A stretch of 32,000 nt of DNA from Halomicrobium mukohataei DSM 12286 (GTDB lineage Archaea; Halobacteriota; Halobacteria; Halobacteriales; Haloarculaceae), in the NCBI RefSeq assembly GCF_000023965.1, contig NC_013202.1:2340001-2372000 (forward strand), in the 5' to 3' direction. The position numbers were made by a program, and so were the translations under genes. Positions 1,880 through 30,111 of this stretch are shown here, one piece after another. Below the pieces are notes generated by a model. That model saw only the letters and a list, made by a program, of their open reading frames with translations. It searched no databases and had not been told where the DNA came from. Numbering within the stretch: position 1 is the stretch's first letter; the number at the start of each line of letters is the position of its first letter.

Positions 1880-3148
1880 TCAGAGGTCGCCGTTGATAAT
1901 GTCTCGGACGCGTTCTCGATCAAATAGCTGGTGTTCCTCAGCACTGTCGAACGGATTTTCTGGATCAAACTCTCCAAACTGCTTGGGATATACCTGCTGA
2001 GCAAGTATCTCCGTATTGTAGAGATTCGTCAACGGTCCCTGTCGACTCACTCCGCCCGGCTCGATCCTGTTTTCCTGAACAGCAGTCACCTTCTGACCGA
2101 CCGAATTATCCTCCATTGGCAGAACGTAATTTTTGCGGAATTGGTCAAGATCAAATACTGCTTCACCGTTCTCGTCGGAGACAAGATTTCCGGTGTATTC
2201 TAGAGCTCCCTGAATAATGATTACGTCGGGATCGGCTTGTAGAAGCCCCTCGTAGTCGGTCTGCTCGGAGATTTCAAATGCGTTGACGGCTTCAAGGTCT
2301 CGGAAGTGCTTCGACTGTCCTAATTCTCCGTCGAAGCCGACCGGATAAATATTCCCTCTGTTAGGGTCACTCGCATCGCTGAGATACGCGATAGTCGGTC
2401 GTTCCTCCTCGGGTGGTAGTTTCGAGTTCACGGTCCGGATCATCTGGTCGTGAACCTCGACGAACGCCTCGTACCTGGCTTCCTCCTTGAAAACCCGTGC
2501 GAGCTTTTCAAAGGCCTCGTAGATGGATGGTTGGTCGTAGTTCAGGCTTGAATTGTTCCGATAAACGTTCGTGCCGAAAATTGGGGCTACGTTCTCCGAG
2601 ATTTCTTCCAAATCACCCTCGTCCCACGCTTTGTTATACACCAAGCGTCGTTGCGGAAAGAACATCAGGAGATCGGGCTCGACTTCGTATACGTACTCTT
2701 TTCCGTCGTAGTCCGCTTCTCCTTCCTTCCACGTGTATGGGTCAGAATTGGGGTAACGACTGCGAAGGTCTACACCGAGATGTTCGAAGTAGTTGAAACT
2801 CCGCAGTGGTGTCGGAATCCATCCATCGATTTGACCGAGACAGAACGCCATGTCAGTCAATTCCGAGTCTGTACTGAGCCAGGTAGTTGGAACTCCCTCA
2901 AATGTAACCTCTCCTACTGGTTCCATCGTCACCGAGTACGACGTGTCTTCGGGAGTTTTGGTTTCTTCAGGACTGTCCGTCTCACCGCCGGTTGATTCTT
3001 CGATCTTCGGGCTGTCGGTATCAGCGTTGTCGCCATCAGCGCTGTTTCCCGTACAGCCGGCCAGTAGCCCACCGCCAATGACCGCCCCGCCGTACTTCAC
3101 GTAGTCTCTGCGCGTCGGTGCCTCGTGTGTCGTATCGTCTCTCGACAT
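1880..3148 (-). CDS. ABC transporter substrate-binding lipoprotein (iron-siderophore/cobalamin-type periplasmic binding protein), Tat signal plus lipobox
   Basis: 422-aa ORF. The N-terminus TRRDYVKYGGAVIGGGLLAGC carries a twin-arginine motif and a LAGC lipobox, followed by an acidic Ser/Thr/Asp linker. It sits next to the FecCD permease and ATPase. It is markedly AT-richer than its neighbours. Confidence 0.8.
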   Translation of the reverse strand: MSRDDTTHEAPTRRDYVKYGGAVIGGGLLAGCTGNSADGDNADTDSPKIEESTGGETDSPEETKTPEDTSYSVTMEPVGEVTFEGVPTTWLSTDSELTDMAFCLGQIDGWIPTPLRSFNYFEHLGVDLRSRYPNSDPYTWKEGEADYDGKEYVYEVEPDLLMFFPQRRLVYNKAWDEGDLEEISENVAPIFGTNVYRNNSSLNYDQPSIYEAFEKLARVFKEEARYEAFVEVHDQMIRTVNSKLPPEEERPTIAYLSDASDPNRGNIYPVGFDGELGQSKHFRDLEAVNAFEISEQTDYEGLLQADPDVIIIQGALEYTGNLVSDENGEAVFDLDQFRKNYVLPMEDNSVGQKVTAVQENRIEPGGVSRQGPLTNLYNTEILAQQVYPKQFGEFDPENPFDSAEEHQLFDRERVRDIINGDL

Positions 3149-7967: not shown

Positions 7968-8759
7968 ATGTCGATCGTTCGTTCGGTTGTCACGCTCGCT
8001 CGCGACCGGAACGTTACGTTCCTCGCGGCGGGCATCGCCTACTACGCGTTCGTGTCTATCGTTCCCCTGCTGCTCCTGGCGATCGCCGTCGCCTCGACGC
8101 TCGGCGGCCAGGCGTTCGCAGACCGGGTCGTCGCAGTGCTGGGCCGGATGCTCTCGGCGTCGGGCCAGGACCTCGTGACGGGTGCACTCACCGACACCGC
8201 CGGGCGGGGGACGGCCTCGCTGGTCGGCTTCCTGGTGTTGCTCTGGAGCGGACTGAAGCTCTTTCGTGGACTCGATCAGGCGTTCGACGAAGTGTACGCC
8301 GCCGAGGTCCACACGTCGCTCCTCCAGCAGGTGCGGAACGGACTGGTCGTCGTCGTCGGCATCGCACTCGCGGTCGGGACCGCGGTCCTCGTCGGTATCG
8401 CGCTCTCGATCCAGCCCTGGGAAATCCCGCTCGTCAACGTCTTCGGGACCGTCGCGCTCGTCGTCGTCATCACCCTCGCCTTCCTGCCGATCTACTACGT
8501 CCTGCCGCCGGTCGACGTGTCGCTGCGAGAGATTCTCCCCGGCGCGGTGATCGCTGCTGGCGGGTGGGTCCTGCTCCAGCTCGGATTTCGCATCTACGCG
8601 GCCAGTGCCGGGCAGTACGCTGCCTACGGTATCCTCGGGGCCGTCCTGCTGTTCGTCACGTGGCTGTACTTCGCGAGCATCGTCGTCCTGATCGGCGTCG
8701 TCGTCAACGTCGTCTTGCGGGAAGCCGGGATCGGTTCCTCGTCGGAGCCGGCCGGGTAG
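7968..8759 (+). CDS. YihY/BrkB-family membrane protein
   Basis: 263 aa. The N-terminus RDRNVTFLAAGIAYYAFVSIVPLLLL is the hallmark of the YihY/virulence-factor-BrkB family. About six hydrophobic spans. Confidence 0.8.
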   Translation: MSIVRSVVTLARDRNVTFLAAGIAYYAFVSIVPLLLLAIAVASTLGGQAFADRVVAVLGRMLSASGQDLVTGALTDTAGRGTASLVGFLVLLWSGLKLFRGLDQAFDEVYAAEVHTSLLQQVRNGLVVVVGIALAVGTAVLVGIALSIQPWEIPLVNVFGTVALVVVITLAFLPIYYVLPPVDVSLREILPGAVIAAGGWVLLQLGFRIYAASAGQYAAYGILGAVLLFVTWLYFASIVVLIGVVVNVVLREAGIGSSSEPAG

Positions 8760-8826
8760 CTGGCGTCTCCCTCGTTGCGTCTGCGATCCTCGCAGGAACC
8801 TGTGGCCCGGTGTCGGGGCGTCGTTC

Positions 8827-8906
8827 ATACTATCGGCTGTGAATCTGTGAACGATTTCGCCACCCCGGGGTGGCGAAGATCTTCACGAAGTTACAGCCGG
8901 CAGTAT
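8827..8906. repeat. 80-bp modular palindromic element, copy 1 (14-bp arm, 15, 22-bp perfect palindrome, 15, 14-bp arm)
   Basis: Left arm atactatcggctgt (8827..8840). Perfect 22-bp palindrome ttcgccaccccggggtggcgaa (8856..8877). Right arm acagccggcagtat (8893..8906). It lies between convergent genes, and its last base is the T of the TGA stop of the minus-strand gene. Confidence 0.85.
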
Positions 8907-10732
8907 CACTTCTGGAGCCCGAGATCACTGCCTTCGACCGAGCCGTCGTCGATGCGGAACCAGCCGTCGTGTACTGCCCGCTCGGTCGCCTCGGGATCGT
9001 TGCAGTACCTGTCCATGACTGTCGGACCGTCGATCAGGACGTCGCTGTCGGCCGAGAGCCCGACGGTAACGCCGGGCAGTGCCTCCCCGACACTGTCGCG
9101 CTCGAAGTCGTCGGGGCCGTTGATCGTTCCGACGGCGCTCGTCTCGGTGGTCCCGGACAGTTCACACAGGGGGACACCGAGGCCGTGGAAGAAATCGAGG
9201 AGGTGATCGTCGAGGCGACCGGTGCTCGACAGTGCGTAGGTCAGATCGTCGAGCCCGAACTCCTGGCGCAGCGGCCGGTAGGCCAGTCGTTCCGCTGCCG
9301 CGTACTTCAGCGGCGTGCCGCTGCCGTCGATCACGTCGCGCCCGTACCCGGTGACGCTCCCGGCGACCTTGCGCTTGGCCCAGCCGAAGGTGCCGATCCG
9401 GTCCTGAAGCTCGCCGTACAGCTGCTGGTACAGCTTGGGGACGCCGATCAGTACCTCCGGGCCGAGTGCCGGCAGTGCCTCGACACTGCTGGCCCGGTCG
9501 GTGTACGCGACGGTGGCCCCGGCGTCCCAGAGGTAGTAGGCCCCGACGCGCTGGTAGACGTGTGCGACCGGCAGGAGCGCGGTCCCCGTCGCACCGGGGT
9601 CCAGTGGGAGCGCGTCGCTCAGTGCCGCGATGGCCGCCCGGAGGTTCCGGTGGGTCAACGCGACGCCGGTCGGCTCGTCGTCTGCGGGGACCTGATAGAC
9701 GATCGTCGCGAGATCGGTCCCGCGGCGATTCAACCCCGGCAGGGAGCGCTGTGGCGACGCTGGCAGCGGCTCCGTGTCGACGACCACGTCGACTGCCCGC
9801 TCGACGGCCGAAGGCGGGTCATCGGGTGACGCGAACCCGTCGATGTCGGCGGTCGTGACGATCGATCGCAGCTGTTCGTCGTCGAACGAGGGATACAGCG
9901 GAACAGAGACGAGCCCGGCGAGGTGGCTGGCGAGGTCGAAGAGCAGCGACTCGCCGTTCGATTCGAGGTCGATCGCCAGCCGGTCGCCCGGCGTGAGCTC
10001 CGTCTCCAGTAGCCCGCCAGCGACCGTCGTCGCACGCTCGTACAGCGACTCGAAGCTCCGTTCCGTCCGCTCGTCGCCGCCGTGTTCGACCGTAGCCACA
10101 CGGTCTCCGTGTGTCGTCGCCACCTGTTCGAACCACGACGCGATCGGGCCGGCGGGAACGGACAGCTCGCCGCCGTCTAAGACCGCTTCTTCCACGGAGA
10201 CCGTCGTCGTCGGCTGGTCGTCGGTCGTCTCGGGGGGTGACTCCGAGCGGCGACGCTGCCGGAGCGTTCCGGGCGTGTACTCGTAGGTCTCGTCGACGTC
10301 CGTCTGGTAGTACTCGCTGTAGCGCTGGTCTTCGTCACCCGCGGCGATGTGGCTGTCGAGCCAGTCCCGGAGGAAGGTGAGGACCTCCATCGTGACGTAC
10401 TCGCCGTCCTCGTGACGTTCGCGAAAGTCGCTGACCGTCGACGCGAACTCCTCGTGCATCTCTCGGTGGTCGTAGAAACAGTCGGCACAGTCCATCGCGT
10501 AGCCACAGTCTTGCATGAACTCTTCCTCGTCGCCGAAGTGGTACTCGGTGTACCGTTCGAGCTCTCGGAGGATGTCACCGATCTCGTCCTGTGAGTGGCC
10601 CTCGTCCATGGCCGTGTGGAGATCGTTCAGCAGGCCGAACAGCCGCTTGTGCTGTTCGTCGAAGCGGTCGATCTGTGTGCTGTAGCGCTCGTCGTCCCAC
10701 CGGGCGAACGCGTCCTCGGACTCTAGTTGCAT
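8906..10732 (-). CDS. hemerythrin-like domain fused to a degenerate, C-terminally truncated AMP-dependent synthetase/ligase (ANL) domain
   Basis: The start was chosen at ATG 10732 (MQLESEDAFARW...), with a TATA-like CTTTTGA 25-31 nt upstream. The N-terminal 140 aa carry the hemerythrin ligand set (QHKRLF, YHFGDEE, HREMHEEF, WLDSHIAAGD). The rest aligns by eye to long-chain acyl-CoA-synthetase-like ANL enzymes (LTHRNL, GTTETS, DGWF). Confidence 0.8.
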   Translation of the reverse strand: MQLESEDAFARWDDERYSTQIDRFDEQHKRLFGLLNDLHTAMDEGHSQDEIGDILRELERYTEYHFGDEEEFMQDCGYAMDCADCFYDHREMHEEFASTVSDFRERHEDGEYVTMEVLTFLRDWLDSHIAAGDEDQRYSEYYQTDVDETYEYTPGTLRQRRRSESPPETTDDQPTTTVSVEEAVLDGGELSVPAGPIASWFEQVATTHGDRVATVEHGGDERTERSFESLYERATTVAGGLLETELTPGDRLAIDLESNGESLLFDLASHLAGLVSVPLYPSFDDEQLRSIVTTADIDGFASPDDPPSAVERAVDVVVDTEPLPASPQRSLPGLNRRGTDLATIVYQVPADDEPTGVALTHRNLRAAIAALSDALPLDPGATGTALLPVAHVYQRVGAYYLWDAGATVAYTDRASSVEALPALGPEVLIGVPKLYQQLYGELQDRIGTFGWAKRKVAGSVTGYGRDVIDGSGTPLKYAAAERLAYRPLRQEFGLDDLTYALSSTGRLDDHLLDFFHGLGVPLCELSGTTETSAVGTINGPDDFERDSVGEALPGVTVGLSADSDVLIDGPTVMDRYCNDPEATERAVHDGWFRIDDGSVEGSDLGLQK

Positions 10733-10837
10733 ACTCTGGGCTGGCTCCACCATCCTCAAAAGCACCCCCTCCAGTTCTCGGCGGATGAAAACAGAGCGAC
10801 ACGCACAACAGGGAATCGGTCGATCACGCAGACAGCG

Positions 10838-11269
10838 ATGCGTCAACTCACCGACGAAGCGATCGCCGAGGTCCTCGCGGCGAACGGTATCGGCGTCCTC
10901 GCCTTTGGCGAGACCGGTCGCTATCCCTACGCCATCCCCGTCGCCTTCGGGTACGACGCGGACGCCGACGTCTTGGCTCTCCAGCTCGAAGGCGGGACGG
11001 ACAGTGAGAAACACCGGGCGCTGGAGCGACACCCGTACGTGTCGATCACCGTCTTCGAAGAGACCGAGCCGCGAGACACCTGGCGCAGCGCAGTGGTCAG
11101 AGGGAAACTGGTCGAAACGAGCTACGAGGCAGTCGAGACGGCCTTCGCGACACTGGCAAAGCGGACGCGCTCTGCACCGAACCCCGTCGTCTGGGGAGAT
11201 TCGGCGAGCGTGACGCCCTACGAACTACAGATCGAGGAGTGGAGCGGTCGGTCGTTTCCGATCAACTGA
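10838..11269 (+). CDS. pyridoxamine 5'-phosphate oxidase (PPOX)-family FMN-binding protein
   Basis: Uses the internal ATG 10838 of track ORF 10727..11269, giving 143 aa. The pattern MRQLTDEAIAEVLAANGIGVLAFGETGRYPYAIPVAFGY ... WRSAVVRGKL is typical of this split-barrel family. It is a paralog of 19696..20160. Confidence 0.75.
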   Translation: MRQLTDEAIAEVLAANGIGVLAFGETGRYPYAIPVAFGYDADADVLALQLEGGTDSEKHRALERHPYVSITVFEETEPRDTWRSAVVRGKLVETSYEAVETAFATLAKRTRSAPNPVVWGDSASVTPYELQIEEWSGRSFPIN

Positions 11270-12868: not shown

Positions 12869-13363
12869 ATGACGGTCGCGACACCGATCGAGCGAGCGAC
12901 GATCCAGGACCTCCCCGCGATCCAGCGGGTCGCCGACTGGAGCTTCCACGCGGCCTACGCCGGGCTGGTCGACGAACAGCTGCTCGACGCCGTCGTCGAC
13001 CAGTGGTACGCGACCGAACGACTCCGCGAGCAGATCACCGATCCCGACAGCCTGTTCCTCGTCGCACGTCGCGGCGGCCGCGTTCGTGGCTACGCCAACG
13101 TCGAACCGGACGACCAATCCGAGACGTACTATCTCTCGCGACTCTACGTCGAGCCGCTGCTGTGGGGCAACGGCATCGGCACCGAACTGCTCGCCGCCGT
13201 CGACCGCCGACTGTCGGCGGAATCGCTCTGGCTCACCGTTCTGGCCGGCAACGAGCGGGCCATCGGCTTCTACGAGCGACAGGGGTTCGAGTACGTCACC
13301 ACGGAGACGACGACCTTCGGTCCGACTGTGGTCGAGGAGCACGTCTATCGCAAGCCGCTGTGA
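12869..13363 (+). CDS. GNAT-family N-acetyltransferase
   Basis: 164 aa. The acetyl-CoA-binding core is LYVEPLLWGNGIGTELL ... NERAIGFYERQGFE. It starts 14 nt after the hisD stop. Confidence 0.85.
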   Translation: MTVATPIERATIQDLPAIQRVADWSFHAAYAGLVDEQLLDAVVDQWYATERLREQITDPDSLFLVARRGGRVRGYANVEPDDQSETYYLSRLYVEPLLWGNGIGTELLAAVDRRLSAESLWLTVLAGNERAIGFYERQGFEYVTTETTTFGPTVVEEHVYRKPL

Positions 13364-13976: not shown

Positions 13977-14056
13977 GTTCCTCGTTCACAGCCACCAGTG
14001 ATAAAGATCGGGACCACCCCGGTATCGGGGACAGCACGCAAGGACGGCCGGCAGTG

Positions 14057-14716
14057 TCAGGCCGACCGCGTGTTCAGCGTCTCCGAGAGGATGCCGACCA
14101 CGTCGGTGAGGTACGCCGTTCCCCACACTGCGACGAGGACGGCACCGATCGTGTCGAAGACGAGATCCAGCATCGTGTCCCCCAGTCCGTACTGCGTGAG
14201 GACGGTTCCGGTTCCCATCATCGCCGCGGCCGTGCTGACGGCGAACTCGATGACCTCCCAGAAGACGCCGAACGCGAGCACGAACAGGAGGATGAACACG
14301 AACATGAACCGCGGCGGAATGTGGATCCCGTCGCTGTGCTGGTCGAGCGACCGCACCGTCGTGTACCCCGCCGCGGCGACGATCGACGACGAGAGGGCGT
14401 GCGTGAGATGATCCCACCACCAGATCGTCGCGTAGAAGTTCGCCTCTGCGCCGGGGAGGCCGACCGTGCCCAGCGCGTGAAGCCAGACGGCACCGGTGAT
14501 CCACAGCGTCAGTCCGGCGTCGAGCGGGATCTCGTAGTCCCGTTCGAGGACGGCCGGCAGCTGGGCGACCAGCAGACCGATTCCGGTGTTGACGATGATC
14601 CCGGTCGAACCGCGTTCGATGCCGACAAAGAGCATCCCGATCAGCGACAGCTGCATGAGGCGCGTGAGCCGCCGCTGTGTCGGCGTCGAGACGCCGATTC
14701 GGTCTCTGAGTCTCAT
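14057..14716 (-). CDS. polytopic membrane protein, unknown function
   Basis: 219 aa from the internal ATG (cat 14714-14716) of track ORF 14057..15274, with an ATGA overlap with the upstream gene. About 6 hydrophobic spans. Conserved-looking WWWDHLTHALSS and FWEVIEFA motifs. Confidence 0.7.
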   Translation of the reverse strand: MRLRDRIGVSTPTQRRLTRLMQLSLIGMLFVGIERGSTGIIVNTGIGLLVAQLPAVLERDYEIPLDAGLTLWITGAVWLHALGTVGLPGAEANFYATIWWWDHLTHALSSSIVAAAGYTTVRSLDQHSDGIHIPPRFMFVFILLFVLAFGVFWEVIEFAVSTAAAMMGTGTVLTQYGLGDTMLDLVFDTIGAVLVAVWGTAYLTDVVGILSETLNTRSA

Positions 14717-15330
14717 CGCGTCACCTCTGTCGGGAGACGGTCGGTCGCCTCGACCTGCCGGCGCACGTAGAACGCGAAGATCAGACCGGCAGCGACACCG
14801 GCGACCGTCGACGCGACGAACTCGACCATCAGCGCGTGTTCGATCTCCGCCTCGGGGACGCCGCGCTTCAACAGCAGCGTCGTCCCGAACAGGATATCTG
14901 CCGACCACCGAACGACGGCCCAGACACCCGCCATCGCAAGCGTCGTGACGACGACGAAGGCGACGGCGAAGCCGTCCGTCATCCGGACCGGGGTAAAGAG
15001 GTGCAGTTCCACCACGACGACCAGCGAGATCGCCGCGACGGAGAGATACGTCGCGACCTGTCCGGTCACCGGGACCGTCGCGTAGGCCCGCCCGAGCACC
15101 GGGAGGGCGGCGAGACCCGTCACTTCCCACGGGAGCGTCGTCTGCCAGCTCTGAAAGCGGACGGGTGGCAGTACCGCCAGCGCGACGACGGCCAGCGCGA
15201 AGGCCGCCCACCAGAGCCGGTCGCGCCAGACGCTCGTCGCGACCGCGATCACGAGCAACCCGATCAACAGCCATGAGAGTACGGCGTTCGTTCGCTGGTG
15301 GCGGAGGAGCCGCCCGATATCGCTACTCAT
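14713..15330 (-). CDS. polytopic membrane protein, unknown function
   Basis: 205 aa from ATG 15330 (the track ORF begins at a GTG 9 nt upstream). 5-6 hydrophobic spans. Translationally coupled to 14057..14716. Confidence 0.65.
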   Translation of the reverse strand: MSSDIGRLLRHQRTNAVLSWLLIGLLVIAVATSVWRDRLWWAAFALAVVALAVLPPVRFQSWQTTLPWEVTGLAALPVLGRAYATVPVTGQVATYLSVAAISLVVVVELHLFTPVRMTDGFAVAFVVVTTLAMAGVWAVVRWSADILFGTTLLLKRGVPEAEIEHALMVEFVASTVAGVAAGLIFAFYVRRQVEATDRLPTEVTR

Positions 15331-16966: not shown

Positions 16967-17206
16967 TCACTCGTGGGCGGCGTCCCACTGGTCGGGCTTG
17001 CGAACGTTGCTACACTCGTTGCACTGCACCCGTCCCATCGCGTCCATCGCGTTGTCGACGCTCTCGCAGTTCGAACAGAAGTATCCCCAGCGCGTCGTCC
17101 CCTCGTCGTCGCTGTACACCAGGTAGAACGGCCCCTTCGAACCGATCTCCGACTCCGACCGGTTCACGAACAGCACCTGCCCGTCCGGACTGTCGTGTCG
17201 TTCCAT
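16967..17206 (-). CDS. small zinc-ribbon protein
   Basis: 79 aa with two CxxC pairs (CSNC ... CNEC) 15 residues apart. Acidic. ATG confirmed at 17204-17206. Confidence 0.65.
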   Translation of the reverse strand: MERHDSPDGQVLFVNRSESEIGSKGPFYLVYSDDEGTTRWGYFCSNCESVDNAMDAMGRVQCNECSNVRKPDQWDAAHE

Positions 17207-20160: not shown

Positions 20161-20282
20161 ACATCTCACAACTGTGGGTTCGTCGCTCTCTCCGATAAGT
20201 GAACTGTCGATTATTGCTCACCGATAATTGTGCGCTTCCGTGCGGTTTCACTCGCTCTGGCGACCGCCTGTCCACACCAGTA

Positions 20283-20317
20283 GTTCTCGTCGGCTGAGAA
20301 CGCGGTGCTGTTTATAT
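20283..20317 (+). promoter_or_regulatory. GTTCTC-N7-GAGAAC palindrome (20283..20301) followed by TATA box TTTATAT (20311..20317) upstream of the DoxX gene
   Basis: The TATA box lies about 40-46 nt upstream of ATG 20357, leaving a short leader that contains GAGGGAG. The palindrome sits 9 nt upstream of the TATA box, which is an activator or BRE-proximal position. Confidence 0.3.
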
Positions 20318-20356
20318 CCCGTATCAACGCCAACTCGCACATGTGAGGGAGAGATT

Positions 20357-20881
20357 ATGGCAACCAACACGGCGAACCCACTGGCGACGGACTTCGAGCT
20401 CGAGTTAGACGGGCCGCTGACGAGCTACTGGCTGGCCCTGCTGCGGGTCATCACGGGCTGGTGGTTCTTCCACGCGGGCGTGACCAAGCTCGTCGAGGAC
20501 GGGCTGGCCTACAGCTACGGGCCGATGTACATGCAGGAGATGACGGGCACGGCCCTGGGGCCGATCCCGGTCTGGATGGGCAACAACCTGGCGTGGTTGA
20601 TCGCGCCCGGCGTCCCGCTGTTCGAGACGCTGATCGGGCTGGCGCTGATGGCCGGCCTGCTGACGCGGCTGGCGTCCATCGGCGGGGTCATCTTCATGAC
20701 CCTGTTCTGGATCGGCAACGCCGAGTTCGGCCACGGCCTGGTCAACAGCGACCTGATGGGGCTGCTGTTGTTCCTGACCGTGATCGTGCTGGGCGCGGGC
20801 CGGTACTACGGCCTCGACGCCATCGTCGAGCAGACGAAGCTGGTGAAACGCCACCCGAAACTGCGCTATATCCTCGGCTAA
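20357..20881 (+). CDS. DoxX-family membrane protein
   Basis: 174 aa from the internal ATG 20357. WLALLRVITGWWFFHAGVTKL is the DoxX signature region. Four hydrophobic spans. Confidence 0.7.
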   Translation: MATNTANPLATDFELELDGPLTSYWLALLRVITGWWFFHAGVTKLVEDGLAYSYGPMYMQEMTGTALGPIPVWMGNNLAWLIAPGVPLFETLIGLALMAGLLTRLASIGGVIFMTLFWIGNAEFGHGLVNSDLMGLLLFLTVIVLGAGRYYGLDAIVEQTKLVKRHPKLRYILG

Positions 20882-20895
20882 CGAGGTGACCGACA

Positions 20896-21189
20896 ATGAC
20901 TGACACCACAACGATCGTCGACCGCATCGCGCTGGGACTGAGCGGTGCCCTGTTCGTGCTGGGTATCGTCGTCATGGGCGTGCTGGAACTGCTGGCGGGC
21001 AAACCCTACAGCCCGACCGCGCTGACCAACGACGCCGGTGAAGTGATCGCGACGCCGCTGATCGACCCGACGCTGCGAACCGGGATCGTCATCGCCGCGC
21101 TGCTCGTGCTGGCCGTCTGGGGTGCCTACAAGCTCGTCACGCCGATGGCCACCGACGCCGCCGACCGCGCCGAGATGCCCGCCGACTGA
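20896..21189 (+). CDS. small two-span membrane protein
   Basis: 97 aa. A strong Shine-Dalgarno GAGGTGA (20883..20889) lies 6 nt before the ATG, which is 14 nt after the DoxX stop. Two clear hydrophobic helices. Confidence 0.6.
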   Translation: MTDTTTIVDRIALGLSGALFVLGIVVMGVLELLAGKPYSPTALTNDAGEVIATPLIDPTLRTGIVIAALLVLAVWGAYKLVTPMATDAADRAEMPAD

Positions 21190-21268
21190 TACGGCCGGCT
21201 GTCGCCGTTTCGAGATATTCGCGACCGCGGGGTCGCGAAATGCTGTACAGACGGACAGCCGGCAGTAT
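21189..21268. repeat. 80-bp modular palindromic element, copy 2
   Basis: Left arm atacggccggctgt (21189..21202). Hairpin ttcgcgacc-gcgg-ggtcgcgaa (21218..21239). Right arm acagccggcagtat (21255..21268). It has the same 14-15-22-15-14 spacing as copy 1 and starts on the last base of the TGA stop of 20896..21189. Confidence 0.85.
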
Positions 21269-21418
21269 GGGTCTCCGCTTCGTTTCGCTGCCGTCGAACT
21301 GATTCCTCGCGACTGACAGCGCCGCTCTGACTGTGACCGCCGGCAGTGTCGCCGGACGGTAGACTCCACGGCGATGGTCTCGCTGGCCGCCTGAGAAGGG
21401 GAACGAACAGAGCGGTGG

Positions 21419-22669
21419 CTACTCCCCAGAGGGCCTGATCGTCGCCAGTACCCAGTCGTCGGGGGTCGCTCGGCGCACTTCGAAGGGGTCGAACGCCGCC
21501 CGTGGAGCGTCGGCCAGGCGGCCGAGGAAGTTCCCCACCGGCGTCGGGTCCCGGTCACTGACGAGGACGAACGGCTCGCCGCCGTCGAGCGCGGTGAATC
21601 GCTCGCGGACTCGGGCTTTCCGTTCTTCCGGCGCGAGGCCGCGGATGTCGACGGCGGCGTCCGGTACGTCGACCTCGCCGGCGGTCGCGATCGCGGCGTC
21701 GACTTCGCTGGCGAGATCGGCCACGGGCGCTGGCACGTCGCCGGGCGTCGGCGTCCCTTGCAGGTCGTGAGTGAAGGGGAGTTCGGCGAGGACCGCCGCG
21801 TCGAGGTCCCCGACCGCTTCCTCTGGGAAGAGGTCGTTTGGCTCGCCACAGCAGTCACAGACGTACTCGGCCATGTTGACGACGGTCCCGAGGACTGGCA
21901 CGTCGTTGTCCCGGAACAGTTCGACGGTGCGACTCGTGTCGCTGACGCTGGCGTGGAACGGCGTGGTGACGACGACGACGCCGTCGACGGGAACTTCCTG
22001 GAGCGTCGTCAGCACTACGTCGCCGGTCCCCGGCGGGAGGTCGATCACGAGCACGTCGTCGTTGCGCCACGCGGTGTTCGTAAAGAGGTCGTCCAGCGCG
22101 TCGTGGGCCATCGCGCCTCGCCAGGCCAGCGGCGCGCCCGACTCCATCAGGCCGACGCTCATCACGTCCAGCCCGCCGACCGACACGGGGAGAGGATCGC
22201 CCTCCTCGCTGGACTGGACCGGTCCGCTCACGTCGAGCAGTTCCGGCACGTTCGGGCCGTGGATGTCGGCGTCGAACAGCGCCACGTCGTCGTCGGCCGC
22301 CAGCGCACAGGCGAGGTAGGTCGCCGTCGTCGACTTGCCGACGCCGCCCTTCGCGCTGGCGACGGCGATCACGTGGTCGAACTCCCGGACGCTCGCCCGG
22401 TCGTCACTGGAGGGTGTCGTCCGCTCGACGTGGACGCCTTCGACGCCGGCCACGTCGTCGACAGCGCGTAACATGGCCTGGACGACCTGATTCGCCGTGT
22501 CGCCGTCCAGTGCGGTCATGTCCGTTTCGATGGTCACGTCGGCGTCCTCGACGACGACGTTCTCGACGAAGCCGGCCTCGAACACGGAGAGGTCGGCCTG
22601 TGGGTCGCGAACCGCACGCAACGCCGCTTCGACGCGATCGGTCACGGTGTCTGTGTTCGTATCTGTCAT
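21419..22669 (-). CDS. three-domain fusion: DUF59/MIP18-like domain, Mrp/NBP35/ApbC-type P-loop Fe-S carrier ATPase, DUF2249-like domain
   Basis: 416 aa. The N-terminal roughly 90 aa resemble DUF59 (RVEAALRAVRDPQADLSVFEAGFV). Deviant Walker A ASAKGGVGKST, and VIDLPPGTGD. Cysteine motif CDCC. The C-terminus VDIRGLAPEERK...FVLVSDRDPTPV follows the DUF2249 pattern. Confidence 0.88.
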   Translation of the reverse strand: MTDTNTDTVTDRVEAALRAVRDPQADLSVFEAGFVENVVVEDADVTIETDMTALDGDTANQVVQAMLRAVDDVAGVEGVHVERTTPSSDDRASVREFDHVIAVASAKGGVGKSTTATYLACALAADDDVALFDADIHGPNVPELLDVSGPVQSSEEGDPLPVSVGGLDVMSVGLMESGAPLAWRGAMAHDALDDLFTNTAWRNDDVLVIDLPPGTGDVVLTTLQEVPVDGVVVVTTPFHASVSDTSRTVELFRDNDVPVLGTVVNMAEYVCDCCGEPNDLFPEEAVGDLDAAVLAELPFTHDLQGTPTPGDVPAPVADLASEVDAAIATAGEVDVPDAAVDIRGLAPEERKARVRERFTALDGGEPFVLVSDRDPTPVGNFLGRLADAPRAAFDPFEVRRATPDDWVLATIRPSGE

Positions 22670-22670
22670 C

Positions 22671-23537
22671 TTAGAGATCCGGCATCCTGTTGAGGCGGTC
22701 CTCGCCGGGCAACAGGCGACTGTCGTTTTCCAGCGCGCCGCCGAACTGGCGGCGGAAGCGACGCGGCTCGACTTCCAGGGCGCGCTCGGCCGTCTGGCGG
22801 ACCACCGTCGCGGGATCGTCCGTCAGCTCCCGCAGGCGATCGCGGGCCCGGTCCTCGTCGACGCCCCCGAGCATGTGTGCGGCCCACTCGCGGACGCGCT
22901 CGCTGTCGTCGCGGCTCTGTTCGAGCAACAGGTCGGCCATCGCCTCGCCACGGAGCTTGAACAGCGAGATGGCCGCGTTCCGGCGGACGGCGTGGTGGTC
23001 GTCGTCGAGTGCCGTTTCGAGGTCGGACTCGTGGGCCTCGCGGTCGAGATTGTCGAGCGCCACGACGGCCTCCGATCGGACCCACGGGTCGGGATCGTCG
23101 AGCAGTTCGACCGCGACCGCTGCGGCCGCTTCGCCGGTCTCCGTCCCGGAACCGGCGTCGGTCCCGTGGGCGGTCAGTGCCTCGACGGCGAACTGGCGCA
23201 CGTCGTCGTCCGGGTCGTTGGTCGCGGCGTAGGCCAGTCCCGCGACGATCGTCTCCGTCGTCGCCCGGTCTTTCAGCGCGAGCGCGGCCCGACGACGGTC
23301 GATCTCGCTGTCGGCCGCCAGATCGGCCAGTAGTTCACTGGGATCGTCGCCCTCCACCGGCTCGGTGTCGGCGGCCGCCAGCTCCGCGGGCGTCGCCTCG
23401 CCGATGGTAACGTCGGCACGGCTCACTTCGATGTCTTCGAGCGCGTCGATGTCGGCGTGGAGGCCGGGGCTCCGTTCGGGATCGAGCTGGGGGTCCGGCT
23501 CCTCTTCGAGGTGCTTCTCGAACTCGTCGTCGGTCAT
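22671..23537 (-). CDS. HEAT/PBS-lyase-like repeat protein with acidic N-terminal region
   Basis: 288 aa from the internal ATG (cat 23535-23537) of track ORF 22671..24557. Repeated D(D/P)xxxVR(xx)A(vxaL) units: DDVRQFAVEAL, DPWVRSEAVVAL, HHAVRRNAAISL, SERVREWAAHML, ATVVRQTAERAL. Confidence 0.8.
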   Translation of the reverse strand: MTDDEFEKHLEEEPDPQLDPERSPGLHADIDALEDIEVSRADVTIGEATPAELAAADTEPVEGDDPSELLADLAADSEIDRRRAALALKDRATTETIVAGLAYAATNDPDDDVRQFAVEALTAHGTDAGSGTETGEAAAAVAVELLDDPDPWVRSEAVVALDNLDREAHESDLETALDDDHHAVRRNAAISLFKLRGEAMADLLLEQSRDDSERVREWAAHMLGGVDEDRARDRLRELTDDPATVVRQTAERALEVEPRRFRRQFGGALENDSRLLPGEDRLNRMPDL

Positions 23538-24361
23538 CGCTCCACCTCCAGCGAGAGCAGCGTGGCGATCCCGAGGGCGAACGGGACGGCCCGCGGGAGC
23601 GTCGCCGGCACGCCAGCGAAGGCGAGCAACGCGACGCCGGCAAGCAGGGCGAAGCGTTGCTCTCGGAGCGCCACGCTCGCCGCCGTCACCACGCCAGCGA
23701 CGGCCAGCCCGACGACGACCAGCGACGTGCCCACGACGCCGCTGCCGACGAGGGTGGTCGCGCCCGCGACGAACGGATTCGCGAGGCCGACGGCCACTAC
23801 GACGGCGAACGCGCCCGCGCCGACCCCGACCGCCCGCGGGCCAGCGCCAGCGAACAGTGGCGTCGCCGCGATGCCGAGCAGCGCGAGCGTCGAACCGATC
23901 GGTCTGAGTTCGGGCCAGCCGAAGCTGGCCGCGAGCGCGACTGCGACGGCCGCGACGAGCAACGCGGTCGCCGCGCCCGTCCAGACGGTGAGTCGGCGGC
24001 GGAAGCCGACCGCGACGACGCCGGTCCCCGTGGCGACGGCGACGGCCGCGGGCGTGGCGAGGCCGACGGCGGCCGCGAGCAGCCCGAACACGCCGACGAA
24101 GAGGAGACCGACGCCCGCGAGGGGGTCGTCCTCGCTCGCCCCGAGCCACAGTGCGACCAGTGCGGCCAGTCCCGTGGTCACGCCCGCGATCGGCTCCCGT
24201 GGGAGCGTCGCCGGTGCCGCCGGTGCGTTGACGAGGATCGCCGCAGCGAACCGCGCGCCGACTGCGAGCGCGACGACGGTGGTCGCGACGATTGCGACCG
24301 TCCGTCGCCCGAACGAGGCCGGACGCGCGACGGCGGGCCGCTCGATCTCGCTCGCGGTCAT
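23534..24361 (-). CDS. Ala/Gly/Val-rich polytopic membrane protein, unknown function
   Basis: 275 aa with about 7-8 hydrophobic spans. It fits exactly between narJ and the HEAT gene, with ATGA overlaps at both ends (24358-24361 and 23534-23537). Competing frames here give only Arg/Pro-rich shadows. Confidence 0.65.
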   Translation of the reverse strand: MTASEIERPAVARPASFGRRTVAIVATTVVALAVGARFAAAILVNAPAAPATLPREPIAGVTTGLAALVALWLGASEDDPLAGVGLLFVGVFGLLAAAVGLATPAAVAVATGTGVVAVGFRRRLTVWTGAATALLVAAVAVALAASFGWPELRPIGSTLALLGIAATPLFAGAGPRAVGVGAGAFAVVVAVGLANPFVAGATTLVGSGVVGTSLVVVGLAVAGVVTAASVALREQRFALLAGVALLAFAGVPATLPRAVPFALGIATLLSLEVER

Positions 24362-25032
24362 GCTCCCTCCAGCCGTGCCGCCAGGTCGTTTCGGTCCGCG
24401 CGGACGACTCGCTCCATGAACTGTCCGAGGCGGCCGTACACGCCGGTGCCGGGTTCGTCGGCGAGGCGATCGGCGACGCCGGCCGCGAGATGCCCGAGGT
24501 GGCGGTCGTGAAAGTCCAGCCGGGCGGCCGCTGCGCTCTCGTCGACGGCGGCCTCACGGCGGGCGAGAAACGCCGCGAACTCCAGTTCGTAGGCCAGCGC
24601 GTCGTGGTTGTCTCGATCGTCCTGATCGATCGCGAGCCCGTAGTAGTCGTAGGCCCGTGCCAGATCGAGGTTCACGTCGTTCCAGGACCGATCCGGCCGG
24701 TACTTCGACTCGTACAGCGGCACCGGCGGTCCCCGTGCGTCGAGCGAGCCGTCGGTCCGGTCCGTGTACTCGCTGTACCCCAGCTCGAAGATGTCGTTGT
24801 ATCGGGCCGCCAGGGTCTCGTAGCCGTCGTCGGTCGTGCAGTCGGGAGCCGCCACGTCCAGCGTCGTCTGTGCGACACACGCCTCGATGTCGGCGTCGAG
24901 TGTCCCCTCCGTGGCGGCCTCGTGGAACGCCTCGTCGGGATGCCGGAAGGCGTGTGCCAGGGTCCGGTACAGCGTCGCTCGGGCCGCCGCGTCCACGTCG
25001 AGATCGTCGGGCGCGTCGGTGACGGTCGCCAT
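24358..25032 (-). CDS. narJ: nitrate reductase assembly chaperone (NarJ/TorD family)
   Basis: 224 aa from the internal ATG (cat 25030-25032), 1-nt overlap with the upstream stop. TorD-like pattern (LYRTLAHAF..P, YNDIFELG, PLYESKY, DHDALAYELEFAAFL). Positioned downstream of narGH. Confidence 0.8.
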   Translation of the reverse strand: MATVTDAPDDLDVDAAARATLYRTLAHAFRHPDEAFHEAATEGTLDADIEACVAQTTLDVAAPDCTTDDGYETLAARYNDIFELGYSEYTDRTDGSLDARGPPVPLYESKYRPDRSWNDVNLDLARAYDYYGLAIDQDDRDNHDALAYELEFAAFLARREAAVDESAAAARLDFHDRHLGHLAAGVADRLADEPGTGVYGRLGQFMERVVRADRNDLAARLEGA

Positions 25033-25874: not shown

Positions 25875-25963
25875 CCTCGAACACCGGGCGACTTCGCGGT
25901 GTTCGTCTCCCGAGCTCGAAGATGACTGCCGTCGCTGTGCTTTGTCAGTCATCTTCGAACACC
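25866..25963. repeat. triple repeat at the narH/orf7 junction: 20-bp direct repeat (25866..25885 and 25944..25963, 19/20) plus an inverted 13-mer (25916..25928)
   Basis: gtcagtcatcCtcgaacacc versus gtcagtcatcTtcgaacacc. tcgaagatgactg at 25916..25928 is the exact reverse complement of 25946..25958, and pairs with 25868..25880 with a single G-U in the mRNA. Confidence 0.85.
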
Positions 25964-27021
25964 TCCAACCGGTACTGTTCGGCCGGATTCTTGTCCTGGA
26001 GGATCTCCATGAGTTCGCTGTCGGCTCCCTGTCTCGCCCGCTGGCGCTCCCGTTCGATCGTGTCCAGTGCCTCGTCGACGCGGTCGCCGAACAGCTCTCG
26101 AAGGTACTGGCGGGGGATACGGTCCACGTCGACCGACTCGCCCTCGTCGGTGTGCTGGGGCGGTGCGAACGGCGGGATGTAGTAGACGTTGGGCTGGGTC
26201 TGGAACTCCGGATGCAGCGGGAGCGCGACCTCGTACTCCTCGACGAGCTTGTAGATGGGTCCGTCTTCGTCGTCGAGAAAGCCCACCAGCCGGAGCTGAG
26301 GGGGACACTCCTCGGCACAGGCGGGCGCGAACGTCTCGCCGTCCGGCCCCTCGCCCTCGATGCGGGGGTAACAGAAGATGCACTTCTCCGATTTCTTCGA
26401 GACGGTGTTGTAGTACACCTTCTTGTAGGGGCACCCCTCGACGCAGTAGCGGTAGCCCCGACAGCGGTCCTGGTCGACGAGGACGATGCCGTCCTCCTCG
26501 CGCTTGTACAGCGCCGATCGCGGGCAGGCCTCGACACAGGAGGGGTGGGTACAGTGGTTGCAGATCCGCGGGAGGTAGAAGTAGTAGCTGTTGGGGTACT
26601 CGCCGGCACCCTCGTCCTCGTCCCAGTTGGGACCCCACTCCGCGCCGTCGCGGGGGCGCAGCGGCTCGTCGCTGCCCTCGTACATGATCTCTTCGTGGTT
26701 GAACTCCCAGGCCCGGCCGTAGTCCTCGCGATCGGGGATCTCGCCGGTCTGGCGGTCCGTGTGTTCCCCGGACTGCCAGCCGCCACCCGACTCCTCCCAG
26801 CCTCGCGGGTAGCCTTCGCCGGGCTTGGTCTCGACGTTGTTCCAGTACATGTACTCGCTGCCGCCGTCCTCCGTCCAGAGGCTCTTGCAGGCGATCGTAC
26901 ACGTCTGGCAGCCGATACACTTGTTGAGGTCCATCACCATCGCCACCTGGTGGTCGACGCCGTCGGCGACGTTGATCAGGGTGTCCTCGTCCTCGCCGTC
27001 GTTCTGGGTGTTCGAGCTCAT
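25945..27021 (-). CDS. narH: respiratory nitrate reductase beta subunit (4-cluster Fe-S protein)
   Basis: 358 aa. Cys groups CIGCQTCTIAC, CNHCTHPSCVEAC, CRGYRYCVEGC and CIFCYPR. ATGA overlap with narG. Confidence 0.93.
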   Translation of the reverse strand: MSSNTQNDGEDEDTLINVADGVDHQVAMVMDLNKCIGCQTCTIACKSLWTEDGGSEYMYWNNVETKPGEGYPRGWEESGGGWQSGEHTDRQTGEIPDREDYGRAWEFNHEEIMYEGSDEPLRPRDGAEWGPNWDEDEGAGEYPNSYYFYLPRICNHCTHPSCVEACPRSALYKREEDGIVLVDQDRCRGYRYCVEGCPYKKVYYNTVSKKSEKCIFCYPRIEGEGPDGETFAPACAEECPPQLRLVGFLDDEDGPIYKLVEEYEVALPLHPEFQTQPNVYYIPPFAPPQHTDEGESVDVDRIPRQYLRELFGDRVDEALDTIERERQRARQGADSELMEILQDKNPAEQYRLEVFEDD

Positions 27022-29936
27022 TGGTCGTCACCTCCTGCGGGGCGCACACCGACAGACTCGCGCTGCTCGTCTCCCGAGCCCGACTGCCCGTCGGTCAGTC
27101 GGACGTCCACGTTCACGTCGCTGTTGACGCCGGTCGGACCCCAGTAGTTCGGGAAGAAGTAGAGGTGTTCGCCGGTGTCCTCGGGGTACTGGACCAGCTG
27201 CGTGGGCTTCATGTACATCGGGACGAGCGTGTTGAAGTTGTCTCGGCCCGGATACTGGAACTTCTCCCACGAGAAGAAGTGCCGGACCGTTCCGGGGTCA
27301 CCCGACGGGTAGATCTTCGCCTGTACCTCGACGCTGCCCATGTCGTTGTACACCTCGACGGTGTCGCCGTCCTCGATCCCGCGCTCCTCGGCGTCCTCGG
27401 GATTGAGGAAGACCGTCGGTTCGCCCCGCTGGAGCCGGAGCATCTTCGTGTTCTCGCGCCACGTCGAGTGGATCGACCAGCGGCTGTGGGGCGTGTTGTA
27501 GGAGAGGGGGTAGTCGCCGCCGGTGTCCTGTGGCCCCTCCTTGTGCGTGGGCAACTCCTCGCCGAGTTCGAGGAACCAGTCGTGGTCGACGTAGTACTGC
27601 TGGCGGCCGGTGAAGGTGGGCCAGGGCTGTTTGTCCTGGACGTAGTCCTGCCAGGGGACGTACGGTGCTCCGTCCTCGATGTCGGAGGTCCAGTGATCCC
27701 CCGCCGCTTCGAGACGCTGGGGCTGCTCGACGGTGTCGGCGAACGTGATCTGCTCGTCGCTGTCTGCGGGGTTGGACTCCTCGCTGTGTTCGAGGACGAA
27801 CTCGGAGGCCTCGCGGCCGTCTTCGAGGGCTCCCTCCTCGCCGGTCTCCCAGTCGCGCACGTAGTCGTCGTAGATCGTCGTCAGGTCGATCTCGCGGTCG
27901 AACGATCGGTCCTCGACCGGTTCGACCCCCCGTTCCTGGGCCCGCTCCTGGATCTTCTCGGCCAGCAGGCGGAAGATCTCCCAGTCAGACTTGGCCTCGC
28001 CCAGCGGCTCGACGGCGGGCGTGAACGGGTGGACGTACGTGTGCATGTCGGTCATGTTCAGGTCGTGCTTCTCGTAGTGGCTCGCCGCCGGGAGGACGAT
28101 GTCGGAGTACATCGCCGTCGAGTCCATCCGGAAGTTGATGTCCACGACCAGATCCAGTTTCGGCCAGAGCTGTTCCTCGACGGCGACGTTGCCCTTGGCC
28201 TGGTTGAAGTAGTTGCCACGCCAGACGAACATCGTCGAGGGGTCCGGCCAGGACCCGTCCTCGCGCTCCTCGGGGTACACCGGCATCCAGCCCTCGTCGA
28301 TGGACTCGCGGATCTTCTCGGCGGTGTCGGGATCGGTGTTGTCGAGGATGCCGGCGTGGAAGTAGGTCCACAGCGTCGTCGGCACGCCCCGCACGCTGCC
28401 GGTCGGGAACGAGAGCGTCTTCCAGCCGTGGAACGTCCAGATCTTCTCCTGGCCGACGTAGTGATCCAGCCCGGTGCCGGGTTCGCCGAGGTTCCCGGTC
28501 AGGGTCACGAGCAACTGGATCGCCCGGTTCCCCAGGTCGTTGTGGTACCAGTCGTTGACGCCCTTGCCGTGGATGATCTTGGCCGCGTCGGCGTCGGCGA
28601 ACTCTCGGGCGACGCGCTGGTAGGTGTTCTCGCCGACCCCGGTCTCCTCGTGGACGAACGCGGGCGTGTACTGTGACAGTTCCTCACGGAGGTTCTCCCA
28701 GACCGACCGGACCGCCACCTCGCCGTCGTCGGTCTCGACGCTCCGCTCGACGCCCAGCTGGGGGTCGAAGTCGAGTTCGATGCTCGACTCGGGGTCGTGC
28801 TGGCCGTCGCGCTCGCCGAGCGAACCGGGCGCGGGCCGGAGCTCCCCGTCCTCGTCGACCATCACGAACACCTTGTCCGGGTCGTCGGCGTCCGCCGCGA
28901 GACCGACCTCGCCCGCCCGGAGGAACTTCCCGGTGTCTTCTCGCACGAGCAGCGGCATGTCGGTCTGCTCTTTGAGGTGGGACTCGTCGTACAGCTCCTC
29001 GTCGACGATCGTCTGGGCCATCCCGAGCGCGAGCGCGGTGTCGGTGCCACCCTCCGGCGCGAGCCACTCGTCGGTGTGGATCGCGGTCTGGGAGTAGTCG
29101 GTGAAGATCCCGACGCGTTTCGCTCCCTCGTAGCCGGCGTCGAGGAAGTACTTGGCGTCGGGGATACGGGTGACGTTGATGTTCGACCCCCAGGCGATGA
29201 TGTAGTCGGCGTTGTGCCAGTCGGCGGACTCGGCGTTGTCCGTCTGGGTCCCCCAGGTGATCGGCTGACCCGGCGGCAGGTCGGAGTACCAGTCGTAGAA
29301 GCTGTGGGACACGCCGCCCAGCAGGTTCACGAGCCGGGAGCCGCTGGCGAACGACACGGGCGACATGGCCGGGATCGGCGTAAAGCCCGAGATTGCGTCG
29401 TACCGGCCCGCCTGCACCTCGTCGATGACGTGGTCGGCGATCTCCGTCAGTGCCTCGTCCCAGGAGATGCGCTCCCACTGGCCCTCGCCGCGTTCGCCGG
29501 TGCGGCGCAGCGGGTGGAGCACGCGCTGGTCGGCGTTGACGTAGTCCGTGTAGCAGGCCCCTTTCTGGCAGCCCCGCGGGTTGGGATCTGGGAGGTCCTC
29601 GTCGATCACGGGGTAGTCGCCGGCCTGTTCCTCGCGCCAGACCTGCCCGTCCTTGACGTAGACGTTCCACGAACAGGAGCCGGTGCAGTTGACGCTGTGG
29701 GTCGACCGCGCCACGGAGTCCCAGTCCCACTCCTCGCGGTAGAGGTCCTCCCACTCGCGGTAGGGGTACGATCCGATCGGATCGTCGACCGCCTGCAGCC
29801 CGTCCATCTCTTCGTCGGCGAACGACAGGCCGGTCGCGCCGACGATCGAGGCGGCCCCGAGGCCGCGGACGAAGTCGCGTCGGGTAATTCCGGAACTGTC
29901 CATCCACCGGTCGTCGTCGATGTCGTGTTCACTCAT
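27018..29936 (-). CDS. narG: respiratory nitrate reductase catalytic subunit (molybdopterin, DMSO-reductase type II), Tat-exported
   Basis: 972 aa. Twin-arginine signal SGITRRDFVRGLGAASIVGATGLSFA. FS0 motif HSVNCTGSCSW (H-x3-C-x3-C). Full-length molybdopterin oxidoreductase similarity by eye. Confidence 0.93.
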   Translation of the reverse strand: MSEHDIDDDRWMDSSGITRRDFVRGLGAASIVGATGLSFADEEMDGLQAVDDPIGSYPYREWEDLYREEWDWDSVARSTHSVNCTGSCSWNVYVKDGQVWREEQAGDYPVIDEDLPDPNPRGCQKGACYTDYVNADQRVLHPLRRTGERGEGQWERISWDEALTEIADHVIDEVQAGRYDAISGFTPIPAMSPVSFASGSRLVNLLGGVSHSFYDWYSDLPPGQPITWGTQTDNAESADWHNADYIIAWGSNINVTRIPDAKYFLDAGYEGAKRVGIFTDYSQTAIHTDEWLAPEGGTDTALALGMAQTIVDEELYDESHLKEQTDMPLLVREDTGKFLRAGEVGLAADADDPDKVFVMVDEDGELRPAPGSLGERDGQHDPESSIELDFDPQLGVERSVETDDGEVAVRSVWENLREELSQYTPAFVHEETGVGENTYQRVAREFADADAAKIIHGKGVNDWYHNDLGNRAIQLLVTLTGNLGEPGTGLDHYVGQEKIWTFHGWKTLSFPTGSVRGVPTTLWTYFHAGILDNTDPDTAEKIRESIDEGWMPVYPEEREDGSWPDPSTMFVWRGNYFNQAKGNVAVEEQLWPKLDLVVDINFRMDSTAMYSDIVLPAASHYEKHDLNMTDMHTYVHPFTPAVEPLGEAKSDWEIFRLLAEKIQERAQERGVEPVEDRSFDREIDLTTIYDDYVRDWETGEEGALEDGREASEFVLEHSEESNPADSDEQITFADTVEQPQRLEAAGDHWTSDIEDGAPYVPWQDYVQDKQPWPTFTGRQQYYVDHDWFLELGEELPTHKEGPQDTGGDYPLSYNTPHSRWSIHSTWRENTKMLRLQRGEPTVFLNPEDAEERGIEDGDTVEVYNDMGSVEVQAKIYPSGDPGTVRHFFSWEKFQYPGRDNFNTLVPMYMKPTQLVQYPEDTGEHLYFFPNYWGPTGVNSDVNVDVRLTDGQSGSGDEQRESVGVRPAGGDDQ

Positions 29937-30111
29937 GAGTCAGAAACACCGTAAGCATCGCACAGAGAGCGCCGACGACGGCGAGCGCGAACCCGGTCGG
30001 CGTCGAGCCACCGGCTTCGAGGCCCAGCGCGACGAGGCCGAGCCCGAGCAGTTTGCTCGCCGTGTCCAGCAGTCGATACTGTCGCTCCGAGAGAGTGGCG
30101 GCGTCAGTCAT
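29929..30111 (-). CDS. small two-span membrane protein of the nar operon
   Basis: 60 aa from the internal ATG (cat 30109-30111). It has 8-nt overlaps with narC (ATGACTGA) and narG (ATGAGTGA). Two hydrophobic helices. Confidence 0.6.

Follow-up and report, generated by a model that had tools for sequence, protein, structure and literature searches.

A palindromic intergenic repeat of Halomicrobium mukohataei is very probably a 78-bp MITE with ends akin to those of IS630-family elements

RESULTS

Structure of the Element and Its Copies in the Window

The 80-bp modular palindrome reported twice in our window (the whole 32,000-nucleotide stretch of Halomicrobium mukohataei DNA analyzed here, with a GC content of ∼66%) is very probably, at about 0.92 by our own estimate, a 78-bp non-coding MITE whose ends are akin to those of IS630-family IS of 1068–1070 bp. 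The element reads TAC-NGCCGGC-NGT ... AC-NGCCGGC-NGTA, and a 3-bp target duplication, TNA, lies on each flank. Its 13-nt ends (TACNGCCGGCNGT) contain the 12-bp box on which the initial annotation had been built, and this box is the terminal inverted repeat (TIR) of the MITE; the modular look of the unit is that of inverted-repeat ends combined with a conserved central palindrome. The stretches described at 8827–8906 and 21189–21268 are real, both with the 14-15-22-15-14 layout and the perfect 22-bp central palindrome, and the arm and hairpin identities given for the two copies were correct. The true unit is nevertheless 78 bp plus the 3-bp duplications, the earlier 80 bp being made up of the element itself (8828–8905 and 21190–21267) and one base from each duplication.

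Our pooled sample comprises 64 copies from Halomicrobium, Haloarcula, Halovenus, Natronomonas, Natribaculum, and other genera. Exactly 78 bp is the length of 36 of them, and the element has no coding capacity. Copy 1 of the window aligns without gaps with the 35 other 78-bp copies, and across these 36 sequences the terminal inverted repeats (columns 1–13 versus 66–78) are paired in 93.6% of cells. The features in and around copy 1 are as follows.

7968–8759, plus strand: BrkB/YihY gene, upstream of copy 1
8825–8827: left target duplication of copy 1, TCA, the same as the TCA at 8906–8908
8828–8905, plus strand: MITE copy 1, 78 bp, nhmmer 91.4 this way and 52.8 reversed
8828–8840: left TIR of copy 1
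8841–8855: left subterminal region of copy 1
8856–8877: central 22-bp palindrome of copy 1
8878–8892: right subterminal region of copy 1
8893–8905: right TIR of copy 1
8906–8908, minus strand: right target duplication of copy 1, TCA, the TGA stop of the hemerythrin/AMP-binding gene
8906–11032, minus strand: hemerythrin and AMP-binding protein gene, its stop codon adjoining copy 1

Copy 1 had been described as flush with a stop codon, which holds for its right end (TCA at 8906–8908) but not for the left, where the BrkB/YihY stop (8759) is 68 bp away. Copy 2 has a comparable setting:

20228–20881, plus strand: DoxX gene, near copy 2
20896–21189, plus strand: gene of a 97-aa protein, its stop adjoining the left end of copy 2
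21187–21189, plus strand: target duplication of copy 2, TGA, the stop of the 97-aa gene
21190–21267, minus strand: MITE copy 2, 78 bp, nhmmer 74.2 on the minus strand and 36.4 on the plus strand
21268–21270: second duplication of copy 2, decayed to TGG (CCA on the other strand) rather than TGA/TCA
21419–22669, minus strand: gene of an Mrp/ParA-DUF2249 protein, near copy 2

The oriented nhmmer profile places copy 2 in inverted orientation relative to copy 1. It also belongs to a different subfamily, with a central stem TTCGCGACC..GGTCGCGAA and the spacers ACGTCTGTGAAGAAT and TATCTTGAAACAGTG, and when correctly oriented these spacers match their own subfamily at 11/15 and 12/15 positions. The “unrelated spacers” of the two window copies are thus an artifact, which arose because copy 2 had been aligned the wrong way round and against a copy of another subfamily.

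Exact protein matches put the window at roughly 2.98–3.01 Mb on chromosome CP045142.1, and its closest named relatives belong to Halomicrobium. Other parts of the window drew our attention in passing. The HEAT-repeat, DUF8068, and Mrp-DUF2249 genes (21419–24557) stand beside a gene cluster encoding a molybdopterin oxidoreductase, a 4Fe-4S subunit, and a cytochrome b (25945–31501), which is syntenic in Halomicrobium and Haloarcula relatives, where its neighbors include Nitrate_red_del and EB_dh. Positions 2001–3000 have a GC content of 51%, against ∼66% elsewhere, over a periplasmic-binding protein gene (1880–3148, minus strand), and this segment may be foreign DNA.

Distribution of the Family

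When 8 kb of the window was compared with plasmids by megablast, almost only the element matched, with 92.9% identity in pLC1Hm-01 of Halomicrobium sp. LC1Hm. A sensitive BLAST search with the element itself gave 64 places in 11 plasmids of Halomicrobium, Haloarcula, and Natribaculum, with 13 places in pLC1Hm-01 and 25 in a Natribaculum breve plasmid. We also scanned a one-genome-per-species collection for the right end and applied an nhmmer profile built from eight copies, which together yielded at least 72 places in ∼10 genera, at least 63 of them full length; the genera among the matches listed are Halomicrobium, Halovenus, Natronomonas, Haloarcula, Salinirussus, Halapricum, Haloplanus, Halostella, Natrarchaeobius, and Salinibaculum. 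Each copy scores ∼40 bits better in one orientation than in the other with the oriented model. Outside the haloarchaea, the 16-mer matches listed were single chance matches, and a scan of viral contigs returned 38 matches, all likewise due to chance and with no convincing copy among them, the sole nhmmer match being weak and partial (locus L137, E = 0.0058). A literature search found no paper naming a 78-bp element family of this kind, which may perhaps have been catalogued already under some name.

The family is not uniform at its ends. The Natribaculum subfamily ends in TACTRYCGGACGT, which is not palindromic, and therefore a palindromic box is not essential. Elements of 93–120 bp with the same 13-nt ends and TNA duplications, but with unrelated interiors, occur at three Natronomonas loci (L007, L048, and L067) and three loci of Halobacteriales MAGs (L035, L102, and L112), so several MITE families share the ends of this transposase. 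Another recurring, TNA-flanked terminus, TACGGTCGTGCGT...ACGCACGACCGTA, seen at locus L070 (2587–2701) and also at L033, L059, L061, and L023, probably marks a further related MITE family. At locus L023 (300–420) a partial left end is followed by TAA and then by a full copy, in a nested or tandem arrangement; the arrangement lies inside an apparent TnpB (IS605-type) gene, and the motif GVDLGIKNIA follows a short way downstream. Halovenus amylolytica carries a 14-bp solo end, TACAGCCGGCAGTA, with TTA on both sides (locus L044, 2826–2845), which would be the product expected from recombination between the two boxes of one element.

Target Duplication and Empty Sites

Identical triplets flank 44 of the 64 copies (TCA in 20, TGA in 18, TAA in 5, and TTA in 1). 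The base before the triplet is C in 40/60 cases and the base after it is G in 39/62. The target is thus roughly C-TNA-G, and the duplication is the 3-bp TNA, with N the same on both sides.

Two empty sites bear directly on this assignment. At the first, the copy at 12941–13018 of pLC1Hm-01 is missing from the syntenic plasmid of H. mukohataei JP60, leaving an exact 81-bp gap in the alignment, and JP60 has a single TGA there, with which the upstream CDS ends. The second concerns copy 2 of the window, which is missing from the chromosome of LC1Hm (CP044129.1) as an 81-bp presence/absence difference; a single TCA is kept, again a stop codon, that of the 97-aa gene. The Mrp protein beside this site is 96% identical in LC1Hm, and the intergenic region there measures 50 bp versus 229 bp in the window. 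A third candidate, an empty site in pLC1Hm-01 for a JP60 copy, was rejected, the region being too diverged to call.

Elements of the IS630 family and of the Tc1/mariner group are known to duplicate TA, and a TA target duplication had been suggested for the present element if it were a MITE. Neither empty site has TA, and a TA duplication is therefore excluded; the actual duplication is TNA, and the conserved TA is part of the element itself.

A Candidate Partner Element of the IS630 Family

An end search of the N. breve plasmid CP095391.1 (295 kb fetched), the replicon richest in MITE copies, identified two elements of 1070 bp, 98.5% identical to each other and flanked by TCA/TCA and TGA/TGA. 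Both carry HTH_33/HTH_32 and DDE_3 domains (Pfam) in two overlapping frames, which score 104.6 and 149.3 bits with the NCBIfam model for IS630 family transposases (NF033545, cut-off 100) and cover profile positions 3–135 and 133–299. Such a split over two frames is common in the family. With tblastn, relatives were found on 60 haloarchaeal plasmids, many of them annotated as IS630 family transposase; a search for transposase homologues returned mostly metagenomic fragments. Four further IS copies of 1068–1070 bp, from Haloarcula sinaiiensis, Halovenus salina, Halorubrum ezzemoulense, and Haloarcula sp. GH36, have the ends TACTGTCGGCTGA... and TACTCACGGACATAAGTACG..., three of them with TGA/TGA flanks and one with TAA/TGA. 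Overall, five of the six IS copies have identical TNA flanks.

Over 30 nt, the IS ends (TACTGTCGGCTGA and TACTCACGGACATAAGT) match the MITE ends at 20–24 positions, the first 13 nt being TACTGCCGGCTGT in the MITE and TACTGTCGGCTGA in the IS. The local pair of MITE and IS within N. breve matches at 24/30, and the Halomicrobium MITE ends match those of the partner IS at only ∼70% over the same length; the likeness covers the 13-nt ends and ∼15 further subterminal bases. We infer that the transposase found here, rather than a close relative of it, mobilizes the Halomicrobium copies. The IS630-family transposase would be supplied in trans and bind both MITE ends, excise the element, and integrate it at C-TNA-G with a 3-nt staggered cut, repair of which would duplicate the TNA.

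No full-length partner was found in Halomicrobium itself, in the 32 kb of the source chromosome or in the 224-kb pLC1Hm-01, which is without an annotated transposase and whose unannotated gap has no credible ORFs; nor was one present in the 40-kb regions around MITE copies in N. breve and H. hispanica plasmids. In the fetched loci (∼0.7 Mb), paired MITE-like ends lying 130–4000 bp apart with equal TNA flanks were chance pairs around ordinary genes, and TNA-flanked 18-nt inverted repeats 0.5–3.5 kb apart marked only an unrelated, Tn5/IS50-like IS of 1.67 kb with the ends AGGGCTGTCTCTTACCCA, at an N. breve plasmid locus (L171, 97–1772). All-against-all clustering of 1876 ORFs gave kinases and ABC transporters and no transposase cluster.

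A 3-bp duplication raises the question of another mover, since TNA within C-TNA-G is typical of the IS5 family (IS1031/ISL2/IS427-type) and of PIF/Harbinger-like groups, which duplicate TNA; the MITE could then be moved by one of their transposases and its likeness to the IS630 ends be coincidental. We regard this as very unlikely. The IS630-family elements share the TAC...GTA termini, have ∼20–24/30 end similarity, and carry TNA flanks in 5/6 cases, whereas ∼1.1 Mb of haloarchaeal DNA yielded no IS5-type element that had such ends or TNA-flanked inverted repeats. Moreover, IS5-family ends normally start with G, which those of the present element do not. An IS630-family mover therefore stays our preferred reading. 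The initial annotation had held a Tc1/IS630-type MITE in reserve, which proved essentially right, full-length IS630-family elements with matching termini having now been found; the same parents tell against its preference for a selected structure or binding site over a repeat.

The 12-bp Box and Other Box-bearing Stretches

Five exact copies of ACNGCCGGCNGT had been counted in the window, at 8893, 14044, 21191, 21255, and 21336, and all five are there. Dinucleotide shuffles give an expectation of 0.06 per window, and none of 100 shuffles reached five. The claim that the box is intergenic fared less evenly: all five window copies do lie between ORFs taken as genes, but the rule is broken in the 224-kb plasmid pLC1Hm-01, where 4 of 18 exact boxes are inside annotated genes, and the box is therefore not strictly intergenic.

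Two of the stretches with a box lie outside the 78-bp copies:

13987–14056: degenerate relative or relic, with a TIR-like box ACAGCCACCAGT at 13988 and an exact box ACGGCCGGCAGT at 14044
21313–21411 (boundaries approximate): extra stretch of ∼98 bp with the fifth box, ACCGCCGGCAGT, at 21336–21347

In the first, the boxes are spaced by 56 nt, not 64, and the nhmmer match is weak (E = 4). The TCA directly after it (14057–14059) is the stop of a minus-strand gene (14057–15274), and a comparable box by a stop codon, at 17045 within 17041–17110 of pLC1Hm-01, is kept in H. mukohataei JP60. These two stretches (window 13987–14059 and pLC1Hm-01 17041–17110) and locus L132 follow the pattern TGA-C-ACTGCCGGCSGT, in which the box begins one base past the stop, and such single boxes have a weak second box, CCACCAGT, 54–56 nt distant. 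Such boxes may represent decayed copies, or else a sister family that is shorter and older. Also within the window relic is a TATA-like TTTAT (minus strand, ∼14001–14005), with a possible ATG (13976) ∼27 nt downstream of it. As for the second stretch, alignment shows that Halomicrobium sp. LC1Hm lacks these ∼98 bp in its orthologous intergenic region. The stretch probably represents another small element, now decayed, that has a related terminus, CACTGCCGGCGGTC; neither its ends nor a duplication could be defined.

The initial annotation favored selection on structure or binding, and in the case of binding the box could serve a dimeric transcription factor as its operator, with the elements as paired sites of a regulon. 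The palindromic form of the box, its strong over-representation, and the position of several copies near redox, stress, or metal genes would all suit such a role. Against this, the boxes bound an element with target duplications and empty sites, and the same ends bound transposase-encoding IS; many copies sit between convergent genes, downstream of both, and in the Natribaculum copies the box (TACTRYCGGACGT) is not palindromic. Taken together, these observations leave the operator reading extremely improbable, and we treat the box as the end of a MITE.

Abutment on Stop Codons

In ∼32 of the 64 copies the duplication also serves as the stop of an ORF with 90 codons or more, a figure to be set against the 27–33% of non-coding TNA or CTNAG sites that pass the same crude stop test. 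Specific targeting of stop codons was considered and rejected: the enrichment over control TNA sites is only ∼1.5–1.9-fold, and therefore no special targeting mechanism is needed. Rather, copies would come to lie flush with stop codons because the TNA target includes them (TGA and TAA, or TCA and TTA on the other strand, fit it), because the duplication would restore the stop beside the gene, so that an insertion exactly at the stop would be tolerated, and because selection would remove insertions within genes.

The Central Hairpin and Possible Use by the Host

Selection on structure or binding had been proposed from the conserved boxes, the diverged spacers, and the covarying stem of the two window copies. 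The spacer argument fails, as described above, but covariation of the central stem does hold for the family as a whole. In the 36 gap-free copies pairing within this stem reaches 89%, and six of its nine pairs have changed on both sides (pair 34–45, for example, being C:G in 23 of the copies but G:C in 7); the subterminal regions are paired in only 57% of cells. Folded as RNA, both strands give −40 to −44 kcal/mol (z −4.8 to −7.4), copy 1 forming one long hairpin at −43.3 kcal/mol. The element is presumably co-transcribed as a 3′ UTR hairpin.

These features could mean that the MITE has been adopted by its host, with the GC-rich central hairpin, or the hairpin of all 78 nt, acting in the transcript just after stop codons, as a means of 3′-end stabilization or as a processing, termination, or protein-binding signal, and with selection maintaining the stem. 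Approximately one copy in two follows directly on a stop codon, as this would have it, but both orientations are represented, and there are copies upstream of genes as well. For the structure as a whole, the covariation score is higher than in any of 500 shuffles or any slid control, although related sequences are known to exceed this shuffle control. The double changes in the stem, moreover, trace to a few subfamilies and hence to few independent events, and palindromes can self-correct by intrastrand templating without selection.

A further point comes from the orthologue of copy 1 in a metagenomic relative with a 94% identical BrkB (locus L177, 3793–3937, versus window 8760–8905). The element is identical at 74 of 78 positions (95%) and the adjacent 64 nt of intergenic DNA at ∼67%, and in this single orthologous comparison, the only one behind the contrast, conservation exceeds what would be expected of a neutral relic. 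As for termination, the known haloarchaeal signals would require a T run. Of the features of an intrinsic terminator the element has the GC-rich hairpin, but no T/U run directly follows it on either strand of the two window copies, and the whole window has no Rfam match at the gathering threshold. On balance we consider adoption by the host unlikely, and an ordinary IS630-type MITE remains the reading we prefer.

The covarying stem and the well-conserved orthologous copy are, all the same, not required by a purely selfish element. They would be accounted for by host-level selection in a broader and rather doubtful scheme, in which a haloarchaeal IS630 subgroup cuts with a 3-nt stagger (TNA in CTNAG), in place of the TA otherwise characteristic of the entire Tc1/mariner/IS630 superfamily, and its MITE, surviving preferentially on stop codons, is selected by the host as a 3′ UTR hairpin.

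DISCUSSION

The element resembles IS630-family (Tc1/mariner superfamily) MITEs such as MITEEc1 of E. coli, which are likewise short, non-coding, multi-copy, and mostly intergenic, with inverted-repeat ends, and like them it has ends similar to those of an IS, here one of ∼1.07 kb with an IS630 transposase in two frames. It departs from them in its target: the norm of the IS630 family is TA, whereas both the present MITE and the partner IS have a 3-bp TNA within CTNAG, with the conserved TA in their ends, and our literature search found no paper linking IS630 with TNA. In the 3-bp TNA/TWA duplication, the small palindromes, and the single hairpin it resembles Tourist-like PIF/Harbinger MITEs and to those of the IS5 family (IS1031/ISL2), from which it differs in having a candidate partner of the IS630 family and ends that start with TAC instead of G.

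The bacterial REP/BIME, ERIC, and Correia elements are, like the present one, intergenic palindromic repeats; they are co-transcribed with their neighbors and can act as RNA hairpins. REP sequences differ in lacking a target duplication and in their dependence on transposases of the RAYT (Y1) type, whereas the element described here has the TNA duplication and a DDE transposase as its candidate mover.

Among haloarchaeal elements, Haloquadratum is reported to carry the IS630-type/ISSod10-type ISHwa7 and ISHwa16, the latter of 1070 bp with an ITR of 17/27 (PMC3119063, Table S8). The partner IS matches the tabulated length and imperfect ITR of ISHwa16, as judged by table entries rather than by sequence (PMC3119063). 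Haloquadratum walsbyi also has small mobile repeats (SMR), for example HqIRS41, of 79–80 bp, which share with the present family the haloarchaeal host, a length of ∼80 bp, and prominent terminal inverted repeats, and which are sometimes found within other mobile elements (PMC3119063), as is the locus L023 copy in a TnpB gene. They are described as having no target duplication and ends unrelated to any transposon (PMC3119063), in contrast to the duplication and the candidate partner found here, and it is by this description that we set the two apart.

We conclude that the palindrome is an ordinary MITE of an IS630-family IS, widespread in Haloarculaceae and neighboring families. The 78-bp family explains many of the conserved palindromes that abut stop codons in these organisms, copies of which can be mistaken for terminators or operator sites. 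The repeat probably also breaks short-read assemblies; one public contig (Logan SRR017869, 2431 bp, locus L130), which has the identical BrkB gene, ends ∼112 bp past its stop, inside copy 1. For transposon biology, an IS630-family element and a MITE that duplicate TNA and not TA are a useful detail, and a 3-nt stagger, if true, would offer a natural variant for the study of how Tc1/mariner-type transposases set the stagger at their target. Finally, the covariation of the stem and the conserved orthologous copy bear on the effects that a MITE may have at the 3′ ends of haloarchaeal mRNAs.
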